In this document: one piece after another, positions 2,474-47,757 of the stretch
Numbering within the stretch: position 1 is the first letter of the stretch
Layout of the letters: every line of letters starts with the position of its first letter
Source: Vicugna vicugna
Lineage: Eukaryota
Direction of reading: 5' to 3'
DNA: 64,000 bases
Assembly (NCBI GenBank): GCA_013265495.1
Contig: MU057880.1
Location: 2,262,527-2,326,526 of the forward strand
Position numbers and translations under genes: made by a program
The notes under the pieces: generated by a model
Database searches by the model: none
The model's input: only the letters and a program-made list of their open reading frames with translations
Told to the model about the DNA's origin: nothing

Positions 2474-3437
2474 TAGGATTGTTATTTTTGCTGCTGTTGT
2501 TTGCACCTACCTTGAAGTAAAGCACTGTGAAAGTAATAGGCATTACCAAGTTTCATGAAAACAAAGGAAAAGTTCTCCTCGGTGTGCTGAGCTGGGTAAG
2601 GAGGCTACCAGGGAAACAGACACTGAAGAATTCATCACTCAGATGTTTAGGTCGAAAGATTTCATGGAGTCATGTGATGTCGCAGGAAAAAAATAGGATT
2701 TAAACTCAAAAGACCTGGATTGAAGGTTAACGTTATCATTTGTCATTGGGGTCACTCGACATCCAGGTCTTCTGGGGACCTTCATGGTTTGTCTTTGTCC
2801 TGACACAATTGAAAATACCACCCTCTTTCATTCTCAGATATGTGTTGGTTTGGACAGGAAGCTATAGGGTCATCCAACTGTGACAGCCAACCCAATTTTT
2901 ACAGTAATGAAGTTTGCATAATACATTTGGTCTTGAAGGTGGTTGTGAGAGCTGGGAAAAACCTGTGTAAGAAAATGTTTTGTAATCTGAAAATCACTGT
3001 AAGAACTATGAAGAGGTATATAAATATTAGTGTATTTATTTGGGCAGGATGACTAAGGTGAATGTAGAAATGAGAGTAGGTTTATTTTAGTCACTCATCC
3101 TTGGACACAGTGGTGTTACTCTTGTGTGGTAGTTTTATTTTCCCAAAGTATGGTATGTTGAAATCAAGACACAGACCATGATGACAAGGATTATTGAAAC
3201 CTAGACTTGACTTGTGATTAGGAAAAGGGATAGATTCCATCGCATTAAAGTTTCAATGGCTTTCCTAAACTAAGTGAGAAAAATGGAACCAATTAGTGTG
3301 GAATTTCATCAATGTTCCATTGAATTTTGAATTTAAGTTCTTACAATTTACTTATTATCTTTAAGAAGTACTTACACATCCTTCTATGAGCTTTGGAAAA
3401 TGATAATAATTTTATTCTTTTTATAAGTCATTGCTAG

Positions 3438-3961: not shown

Positions 3962-4782
3962 GCAGTAATCACAAATGTTAGTATCCTTAGGAATTTGATC
4001 TTAAGTGAGCAATTTCTCAAAGGAAGCAAAAAAAAAAAAAAAAAAGGAAGCAGTTTCCATGGAGTGCTACTCCTGGACTCAGTTTTATTTCAGATGGTAC
4101 CATTTAATCTCTATCAAATGGTTGCATCTTAGCTTTTTGCACTTCTTCCTGAAAAGCTGCTAGAGGACCTGTGTTAATTTCAAACAAAAGCAAGCAAAAA
4201 CAGTTTTTACCAATAGCAAACGAGTTTCCAGGAAGAAGATACTAATTCTGCCGAAATCTAAGAAGCCATTCACCAAACAGCATATGGACTGCAGAAAAAA
4301 CTCGGCAAGCAAGAGCCAGCTCACCATTTGGAACTTTTAAAAATATAATTCAGGAGCAAGATATTAGGGGATAATGATGACTGTCTCACAGGGTTGTTAA
4401 AAATAGTAAATAGCTAGTGGATAAGGAAACATCTGGTCAGTGACCTGCAATTTTGAGTGGCTCCTCTATAAATGTGAGTTGAGTAGATGAGCGAGATTTG
4501 GAAAGAATGAGGCATCAAGGGAACACAGCCTACAAATAATGCTCTTTCTTTTATTTTTTTTCTATGCCAGCCAAGACCCTCTCCCTTATAGATTCGTACA
4601 AATGACCACAGAGAAAAGTTCATTTGACTGACTCAGATAACAATTATTACAGGCTTTTTGTGTCTTTTCAATCATTCAAATGATTTTTACTTCCAAAATC
4701 TGCCATTGAAGATTCTGAACCACCTAGATTGGGATTTGAGGTCACCAAAAGACTCAATTTTACTCTCTCTGTCTACTGGCAG

Positions 4783-4843
4783 GGAGGAACTATTCTCAAG
4801 CATCTGGACTGGCATAGAAAAGAGGAGAAAGAACATTTAAAAG
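4783..4843 (+). other. PDGFC: Candidate alternative cassette exon in PDGFC intron 1
   Basis: Pyrimidine tract ttttactctctctgtctactggcag ends at 4782; purine-rich body; strong donor AAG|gtaagc at 4844. No transcript evidence available. Confidence 0.55.
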
Positions 4844-7800
4844 GTAAGCAAAACATGTATTTTTGTTTACTCTACATTTTCAGCCTGTTCTCCCACACTC
4901 TAAGATAATCTCACCTGATCAAGGCTTGTCCAGTGAACCCTAGTAAAGAAGAGAACGTTTTAGGTGGACGGACACTCTTTGCTGATTCTTCCACAGGAAC
5001 AAGTGTAGACTTGAACAAGCCCTCCTTTCTTAATGGAAGTCTTTTCTGTCCTGGTGCTTCTAAATTTCCGCCTGGCTATGCCAGTGTTTCAGTACTGTTG
5101 TCATGTTGCTCGTGCTCTTCAGACTGCAGTGTGCTTGCTGAAACACCTCTGGTCTCATTTCTGTATTGTCTGATAAGTCAAAGATCTGGCATATTATTTG
5201 GACTGTTCCGGTGTAGCGAGGATTAGAAGTGTGTTTTGCAAAGTGTAATCGATTATTCTGGTGTTTTTTGACTTTTTTCCCCCTCTTTCACGTCTATTTA
5301 TTTTCTTTGGAGGAAAATACTGAATAAAAGGACCTTGTTAATTACTGAGTAAAAGGCTTAATACATATTTTTATCAGGTTTTGTGAGTTTTGTTTGTTTG
5401 GTTTGGTGTTTTGCTTGCCCATCATGGATCCTTTGTTTGGGTTACCACAGGGCGATCAGATCTTAAAGCCTGACCACTAGTTGTTATAAAATAAGTATTT
5501 TGATGGTGTGTGTGGTGGTGCTGGAATAGATCTCTGGAAATTTAAATCATGTAGTTTAAATGGTTAGTTGTTCTTAAGGCTTCTGTTAGGCATAGCTTTC
5601 TTAAAAAGCCATTATCTCAGCTTGAGCATATAACCACCATGTTATTAGTATTACTACACTTGCTGTAATTAAATTAAGTATAATTGGTACTTTCTCCTCT
5701 GTTAGTTTTCTCGGCTTTTCCTTGCCCCCTGGGCATGCATTTCTGTGTCTCTGTTCCATCCTTTGGACAATGTTCCATTTTTTTCAGGACAGGATTGGAT
5801 GCACTTATAGGGAACATGGGTGGAGAGTCTCCCAACTTCAAACTTGGACTGTACGGCCACGAATTTTCAAGGAAATACTCTGTTCAGACAGGTGTGTTCT
5901 CGTGCTGGGAGGCCACGGATGCAGCAGGTCCCTTTGCTGGCCAGGGGATTAAACTCACATCAACAGTGCGAATACCATAAAGAAGGATTCTTAAATCTTG
6001 TGGCATCTGACAACGTCCAGTCTGCCAGATGTGTCCTCAGAGTCTTCCTGGAGGTCAGAAGAGAGGAGAGTAGATATTTTTGGATAATGTTGAAGGAACT
6101 AGTGGTCCTGAGGTATTAGAGAATCATGTCTCCTCACAAATGGAACTTCTTTCTGGTGGACTTGGTCAAGTCCAGTCCAGCCCCTATTTTGAATTTTCAC
6201 TCAGAATTCAAAGACTTATCTTCTGGAATCTGTCCTGTCCTCTGTTTCATCTCCTCTTTTTAGACCACTTGCTTCTGGATCTTTGGTTTGTTTCTTGAAC
6301 TACCATCCTAAGACTAGCTGTGGCTGAAGAATTCTGCTAATGGTTATATTCAAGCCAGTTACACAATATCTTCATGTGTATGTTTACTTATTTTTTAATG
6401 ATAGACCCACGGAATGATAAAACAAAGGAAGCTGACAGGAGATAGCTTGGCATGCTTAGGTATTCTCAGGATCATGATGAAAACTGTCTTTGCTTTGAGA
6501 AATATAATTTAACTGATCTATTTTCCCACCAAAATTATGTGTTCTGTTATTAATTTATGGCACTCATGTCTTTGAAAAGCCTCACGTTTATATTTTATTA
6601 GTATTTTAACTTCCCTTTAAGATTGACGAGGGTTGTTGAACGTGGAGTGTGGGCTGGGGAGGTGACGTTTGCCTGCAGGCAGAATGGTGTGGATATTCAT
6701 GAGTGTTAAGTTGGTTTGAACTTAGCCTGTGAAAGGCAGTCCTGTCCAGTGTAAGTGTACTGCATTTATTCCTGCTCTCTTGGTGTGGAATTACTCCAGA
6801 AACCAAAGATCTTGCTACACATATAACTGATAAATCTCAAATAGTGCTTATGGAACTACAAACCCTTTATCAGTAATTGACAGCATTCCGAACATCAGAT
6901 GGGAGGACGTGATCTGTATGGAATTGACCAAATTTATTATTTTGCCTGCCTTTGGATGTTACTCGTAAGAAATTCGTAGGCTCATTACATATAAGTTATG
7001 TGCATTCACCTTGGAACATAAAATCCTAAATATAAGTAGAGAATCTGACTTTTCAGCGTTAATGACTGCTAAATATAATAAGATGGAAAGAAATGCATTC
7101 CTATTTGATCGTTTCTTAGGAATCATTTCCTTAGCCTAATGCAGACCTTGCCCTAAAACAGAATTTTAAATATTTTAAATATTCCCTGAGCTCATGAACG
7201 AATGGCCTTATTTGCCCTTTTTTGACAGAGGAAGTTTGTATTTGATTACCTTTTCATGATTATTACTCTTGATGAAATTGCTGGTTAACTCCATCTGAAT
7301 GTTATAAATTACACGTCCAGTACAGATGGAAAATTGACAGACGCTGGTTCTCCAAACAGACGAGGTTCTCCATTGAATACATCTTTTTCTTAAATAAGCA
7401 TGTTTGTTAGGCTGTACAATATGATTTTATGCTTCGTCGCGTTAGCCAGTTTTTGTCATAATATCTCATGTAAATGCATTTCGCTGCTTAAAACATTTCA
7501 GAGCTCCTAACTTTTAATGTAAACTTTCTACACTAAATAATTTAATTCAACAAGACAGTTGATTCAGTATTGAAAAATGAAATCACTATTGAACTTTTAA
7601 AGTGAATGTTTCTTTTGTAAAGCGAATTAATCCGAATTTATTTATCTCTGTTCATTCTGGTTTTGGCCTCCTTGTGGTATCTGAAATAACACAACTTAAG
7701 AATGAAAACTAATAGCATTGCCCAGACACGTTTCCCTGTAGTGGTGTGTCTAATGTGTGGTAGGCAATTATATTCATTACTAATTGGTATGAATCAAAAG

Positions 7801-15570: not shown

Positions 15571-15766
15571 GAGTACAAGATCCCCAGCATGAGCGAATTA
15601 TTACTGTGTCTACTAATGGAAGTATTCACAGTCCGAGGTTCCCTCATACTTACCCAAGAAATATGGTCTTGGTGTGGAGATTAGTAGCAGTAGAGGAAAA
15701 TGTGTGGATACAGCTCACATTTGATGAAAGATTTGGGCTCGAAGACCCAGAAGATGACATATGCAA
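15571..15766 (+). CDS. PDGFC: PDGFC coding exon (exon 2 equivalent), N-terminal half of CUB domain
   Basis: Translates (G)VQDPQHERIITVSTNGSIHSPRFPHTYPRNMVLVWRLVAVEENVWIQLTFDERFGLEDPEDDIC(K), recognisable as PDGF-C. Acceptor tgtttttacttttag ends at 15570; donor AA|gtaagt at 15767; 196 bp, phase 1 in, phase 2 out. Confidence 0.97.
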
Positions 15767-47576: not shown

Positions 47577-47757
47577 GTACGATTTTGTGGAAGTGGAGGA
47601 GCCAAGTGATGGGAGTGTATTAGGGCGCTGGTGCGGTTCTGGCAGTGTGCCTGGAAAACAGATTTCTAAAGGAAATCAAATCAGGATAAGATTTGTATCT
47701 GACGAGTATTTCCCTTCGGAACCAGGGTTCTGCATCCACTACAGCATCGTGGTGCCG
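47577..47757 (+). CDS. PDGFC: PDGFC coding exon (exon 3 equivalent), C-terminal half of CUB domain
   Basis: Translates (K)YDFVEVEEPSDGSVLGRWCGSGSVPGKQISKGNQIRIRFVSDEYFPSEPGFCIHYSIVVP. Acceptor tcttttgtcttcgtctcttgcag ends at 47576; donor CCG|gtaaga at 47758; 181 bp. The first G completes AA|G (Lys) from the upstream exon, so the frame is continuous. Confidence 0.97.

Follow-up and report, generated by a model that had tools for sequence, protein, structure and literature searches.

A probable camelid orthologue of an annotated premature-stop cassette exon in intron 1 of PDGFC

Fibrosis and tumours are among the settings in which the growth factor PDGF-C has been studied. Conserved poison cassette exons, which lead to nonsense-mediated decay (NMD), are short and frame-shifting, and place a stop far 5′ of the later junctions. 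Intron 1 of the vicugna PDGFC gene contains a stretch that looks like such an exon, followed within its first bases by a second AG that could serve as an alternative acceptor. The question is whether this stretch is a real exon and, if so, whether acceptor choice toggles it between NMD or truncation and a longer secreted isoform, as the original prediction proposed. The DNA analysed, referred to as the window, is a stretch of 64,000 nucleotides from contig MU057880.1 of Vicugna vicugna.

The gene in the window is PDGFC, with exon 2 at 15571-15766 and exon 3 at 47577-47757, while the later exons are found in L018 and L019. The window does not include exon 1 (L012:8272-8389), which precedes the cassette by 96,393 nt and carries 118 coding nt; whatever is joined to it is therefore entered in phase 1, as had been stated for exon 2. 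Over exon 1 and exon 2, the encoded sequence shows no difference from P0164, a camelid record of 345 aa. The 61-nt cassette sits between these two exons and is single-copy: the genome contains one further match to the cassette stretch, weak and 43 nt long; since common words were skipped in this search, there is still room for an old transposon origin of the stretch. The features to which the text refers are the following, all of them on the forward strand:

4758..4782, +, polypyrimidine tract and CAG acceptor of the cassette; the acceptor is matched by the start of the orthologous isoforms
4783..4843, +, cassette exon of 61 nt, located in PDGFC intron 1; shifts the frame when joined to exon 1
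4785..4786, +, second AG (GAG), proposed acceptor of a 57-nt in-frame form; no sign of use in 142 exon-1-bearing records
4815..4817, +, TAG that ends the exon-1 frame early, at codon 51 (CDS nt 151-153), with 26 nt of the exon still to follow
4844..4849, +, donor GTAAGC; 8/9 consensus positions, equal to the exon-2 donor score
15571..15766, +, PDGFC exon 2, where the CUB domain begins; entered in phase 1, identical to the camelid 345-aa record P0164, with PF00431 on relatives
15663..15665, +, in-frame ATG, Met71, with A at -3 and G at +4; starts a 275-aa camelid isoform (P0162)
47577..47757, +, PDGFC exon 3; supplies one downstream junction, which makes the premature stop NMD-eligible

Some other features of the locus deserve mention in their own right. 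The region upstream of exon 1 contains an out-of-frame ATG (L012:8127-8210), located 145 nt before the PDGFC start, that begins MWKLP; the N-terminally extended PDGFC records of a turtle (P0047) and of a bird-like entry (P0062) share this five-residue opening. Read by eye, this frame has 27 codons and ends before the main ATG; it may represent an ancient uORF of the PDGFC leader. The in-frame leader (L012:8128-8271) resembles the 51-52-residue N-terminal extension of pig and ruminant records (79% over 87 residues, exon 1 included), and an in-frame ATG is absent from the vicugna leader. At 195-320 of the window, a tRNA-like, SINE-looking stretch follows an AT-rich run and presumably resembles camelid SINEs.

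The anatomy of the cassette holds up on recomputation. Both candidate acceptors, the CAG (4780-4782) and the AG that follows it (4785-4786), were placed correctly, as was the donor AAG|GTAAGC (4843/4844); the donor was rightly called near-consensus (8/9 positions match) and the exon body is purine-rich, as had been claimed, with 69% purine. Both translations were likewise reproduced. After the phase-1 junction the 61-nt form reads G-RNYSQASGLA-stop, while the 57-nt form has an open frame, G-TILKHLDWHRKEEKEHLK-G. The CAG acceptor has 14/18 pyrimidines and 29 AG-free nt upstream, compared with 13/18 and 29 for the exon-2 acceptor; together with the donor, it scores like the constitutive exon-2 sites, these scores being crude, training-free counts of pyrimidines and consensus positions.

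Good sites of this kind are not rare in such a long intron. In the 105,500 nt of intron 1, 12 acceptor-donor pairs, including the cassette, reach at least its crude score, so site strength alone is weak proof of an exon. The 11 other equal-scoring pairs are found in the window at 2838-3057 and 5706-5891, and also in L003, L004, L006, L007 and L009. What raises the cassette above chance is that the annotated isoforms of other mammals use exactly the interval 4783-4843. The second-acceptor pattern, on the contrary, is not above chance: another AG follows 3-6 nt downstream in 23 of 132 equally good intronic acceptors, and 40.5% of 20,000 random 18-codon intron stretches are free of stops.

The comparison with other mammals covered 209 protein records, comprising 120 listed of 159 exon-2 matches, 5 exon-1 matches and 84 further cluster members; the large clusters were sampled at 15 members each of 135, 97, 50 and 98. 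This cross-species support is annotation, and protein records reveal only the lineages that have an open frame or a curated short isoform. Among them, one counterpart is J3KN71 (P0204; 50 aa; human, chimp and orangutan; 'PDGFC isoform 2' in Pan and Pongo), which consists of exon 1 followed by GRNYIQASGLA, where the window encodes GRNYSQASGLA and the same stop. It thus shares exon, acceptor, frame and stop with the vicugna cassette; nine of the ten residues after the junction glycine are identical, the exception being an Ile in human and a Ser here. We take J3KN71 to be classed as an NMD transcript. That inclusion at the CAG after exon 1 yields a premature stop, as originally predicted, agrees with this record, which ends at the stop residue of the window.

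In mouse, the record D6RGS6 (P0122, 57 aa) is composed of exon 1 plus GRNYTQHLDWHRKEEKEH; it enters at the CAG position, so that exon 1 is joined to the same acceptor as in the vicugna cassette, and ends inside the cassette. After GRNY it has six bases against seven in the window, a net loss of 1 nt that leads into the other, phase-0 frame, and it terminates at KEH, near the 3′ end of the exon, where the window has Leu. If D6RGS6 is complete, mouse would have kept the early stop by a different route, though the record may be shortened.

A different set of 17 records among the 209 carries the phase-0 cassette peptide directly before exon 2, and passes from one into the other across the donor-side junction. 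They come from orangutan, Phyllostomus bat, fur seal, buffalo, sheep hybrid, guinea pig, hedgehog, donkey, horse and chinchilla, plus one record that clusters with guinea pig; P0038, which is among the 17, is a predicted protein whose reading frame enters from the intron. The orthologous peptides match 4783-4842 at 85-95% identity by tblastn, with 1-3 differences per 20 residues in the phase-0 peptide versus 1-5 per 64 in exon 2. All 17 begin with GG, whatever exon precedes; the two leading glycines indicate entry at the CAG position, since entry at the GAG would leave a single one. An attempt to identify the selected frame from the amino-acid changes was dropped, because these were too few and protein records do not reveal silent changes. 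No cassette peptide was found outside Boreoeutheria among the 209 records examined, nor in the camelid records among those listed.

Judged by these alignments, the vicugna 61-nt exon is the orthologue of the annotated human and mouse PDGFC intron-1 cassette. Taken as a whole, the reading that we consider very probable is that of a real, conserved and already annotated premature-stop cassette exon, of which this is the camelid orthologue. The cassette itself is not new, being annotated in human and mouse, and the camelid copy is ordinary. The idea of an orthologous regulatory exon stands in its first half, as J3KN71 and D6RGS6 use the exon; regulation is something that we infer. Outside the protein records, no description of a PDGFC poison exon, of the exon sequence or of the second acceptor was found in the openly accessible literature, subscription papers aside, and the accessible parts of PMC4741636 and PMC1779574 contain no description of the exon. 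Part of the words of 4740-4900 is present in 18 of 20 listed RNA runs, and half of the 15 sampled words in none. The word share is 0.47 in eight runs (three studies), and the other 10 holders have small shares or fewer than five words; these shares are blind to the difference between a spliced exon, intron and the DNA of a relative, and neither boundaries nor acceptor choice are read from them.

If the cassette is spliced in at the CAG acceptor, as is presumably the case in the vicugna, translation would stop at codon 51 and the including transcripts would give no full-length secreted PDGF-C. In the mRNA, the TAG at 4815-4817 lies 222 nt upstream of the exon 2/3 junction, and further junctions follow. 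Having junctions so far 3′ of it, the stop is NMD-eligible under the established junction rule (>50-55 nt), and most including transcripts would be expected to undergo decay. On this basis, the cassette is likely to lower the output of secreted full-length PDGF-C. In common with poison exons generally, it is short and frame-shifting, has its stop more than 50-55 nt before a later junction, far 5′ of the later ones, and is conserved at the protein level in records of primates, rodents, bat, carnivore, ungulates and hedgehog. It differs from them in that it belongs to a gene for a secreted growth factor rather than for a splicing factor, and the stop is start-proximal.

This proximity may have consequences of its own. 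Near the start codon, stop-triggered decay is often weaker and reinitiation is possible; with the TAG only about 150 nt from the start, some transcripts may escape decay and may be read from a downstream AUG. In human this would be Met164, giving 182 aa, and in camelids Met71, giving 275 aa; the 345-aa protein has methionines only at positions 1 and 164 in the former, and at 1 and 71 in the latter. Both the 182-aa primate and the 275-aa camelid isoforms are on record. Two out-of-frame AUGs, of 31 and 22 codons, precede Met71, so its use would be reduced, and the 275-aa camelid isoform could stem from other 5′ ends. The Met71 product would be devoid of the signal peptide and keep most of the CUB domain. 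As a separate observation, Met71 is found in camelids and many mammals, with Thr in human, orangutan and guinea pig, and 275-aa isoforms starting at this residue are annotated in many species.

These products recall a known form of the protein. Zhao et al. reportedly described PDGF-Cb, an N-terminally truncated human PDGF-C, in 2008 (in Exp Cell Res 314:2529). The accessible part of a review presents PDGF-Cb as a splice variant in which signal peptide and CUB domain are missing and which acts as a dominant negative by retaining PDGF-C (PMC12267214). A frame-shifting exon after exon 1 makes Met164 the first in-frame start in human, and the resulting product fits this description; the cassette is thus likely to be the exon behind PDGF-Cb. 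In camelids, the absence of both signal peptide and CUB domain does not hold, as the first in-frame Met71 lies inside the CUB domain: while PDGF-Cb starts at Met164 and lacks this domain, the predicted camelid product keeps most of it. The camelid escape product is therefore predicted to work like PDGF-Cb, yet to be distinct from it.

Several other explanations compete with that of a conserved stop exon. It is important to note that the phase-0 frame is free of stops in 10 mammals and in the vicugna, which is not required of a pure poison exon and counts against one. The acceptor toggle of the original prediction would make use of this frame: meaningful use of the GAG at 4785-4786 would yield a secreted PDGF-C of 364 aa in which 19 inserted residues precede the CUB domain. 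The 57-nt form is indeed open and in frame, the 10 mammals share the open peptide frame at 85-95% identity, and a 364-aa record could hide in the large clusters (15 members listed each of 135, 97, 50 and 98). Nevertheless, the exon-1 end KEQN continues into TI in none of the 142 exon-1-bearing records among the matches listed, entry is at the CAG position in each of the 17 peptide records, and a search for the peptide plus the exon-2 start in proteins of 278-2000 aa gave three matches, none of them the 57-nt form. The GAG was correctly judged the weaker site: it has 12/18 pyrimidines against 14/18, a CAG directly upstream and a G at -3, the least used acceptor base. A nearby AG (23/132) and an open 18-codon stretch (40.5%) are, moreover, common by chance, and as the mouse exon has changed frame, a 4-nt shift would probably leave the mouse frame unrestored. 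According to the accessible part of one study, small acceptor shifts of 1-4 nt largely reflect stochastic choice among nearby sites, that is, splicing noise, with 3-nt shifts dominating (PMC1449888). Unlike a functional tandem acceptor, the second site here is absent from the 142 records, which are annotation, and weaker by crude score. The toggle, for which no record speaks (0/142 use the GAG), is accordingly extremely unlikely, and use of the second AG probably amounts to no more than splicing noise. A broader proposal is a two-way frame switch, with a stop exon after exon 1 and, if the frame is restored by the GAG or by a second cassette of the kind modelled in buffalo, hedgehog, donkey and orangutan, a charged insert of 19-20 residues ahead of the CUB domain in a longer secreted PDGF-C; in mammals with Met71, the stop mode would lead to a 275-aa, CUB-bearing intracellular form unlike human PDGF-Cb. 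We regard this as unlikely.

The open phase-0 frame could also mean that the exon is kept for its phase-0 peptide as a dual-frame coding module, brought in frame by a second frame-shifting exon or an alternative first exon. In this sense, the buffalo, hedgehog, donkey and orangutan models consist of exon 1, an extra exon and the cassette, in frame, and seal, bat, horse, chinchilla and guinea-pig records place other first exons ahead of the cassette. The partner exons, however, differ between species; three of them map to three separate places of intron 1 here, at 50-70% identity, and that of buffalo has no counterpart at E<0.05. The three diverged camelid counterparts of the hedgehog, donkey and orangutan exons (L011:6423-6482, L003:527-622 and L005:8553-8627) are without a clear acceptor-donor pair matching the peptide, and none is convincing as an exon. 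The mouse record terminates in the phase-0 frame, and no selection is needed to produce such records, given that gene models choose the longest open frame. The frame-restoring partners look like sporadic, lineage-specific exons rather than a conserved switch; we consider a dual-frame module quite improbable. In the opposite direction, the stretch might be DNA conserved for another reason, such as a regulatory element, that is leakily spliced, inclusion being tolerated noise, or silent in camelids. Support in camelids lies in sequence, not in an observed junction; the sheep record remains similar into the intronic sequence on the upstream side (86% over 36 codons), and 11 other pseudo-exon pairs score equally. 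Against this, identical boundaries are annotated in primates, rodents, bats, carnivores, ungulates and hedgehog, and both splice sites are intact in vicugna; leaky splicing is in our view very improbable.

The early stop seems to be retained across boreoeutherian mammals, in mouse apparently via a different stop, and this favours a selected brake on PDGF-C over noise. If such a brake exists, skipping or inclusion of the exon could serve as a means to tune PDGF-C output. The predicted escape product would depend on the lineage, starting at Met71 or at Met164, which matters for animal models of PDGF-Cb.
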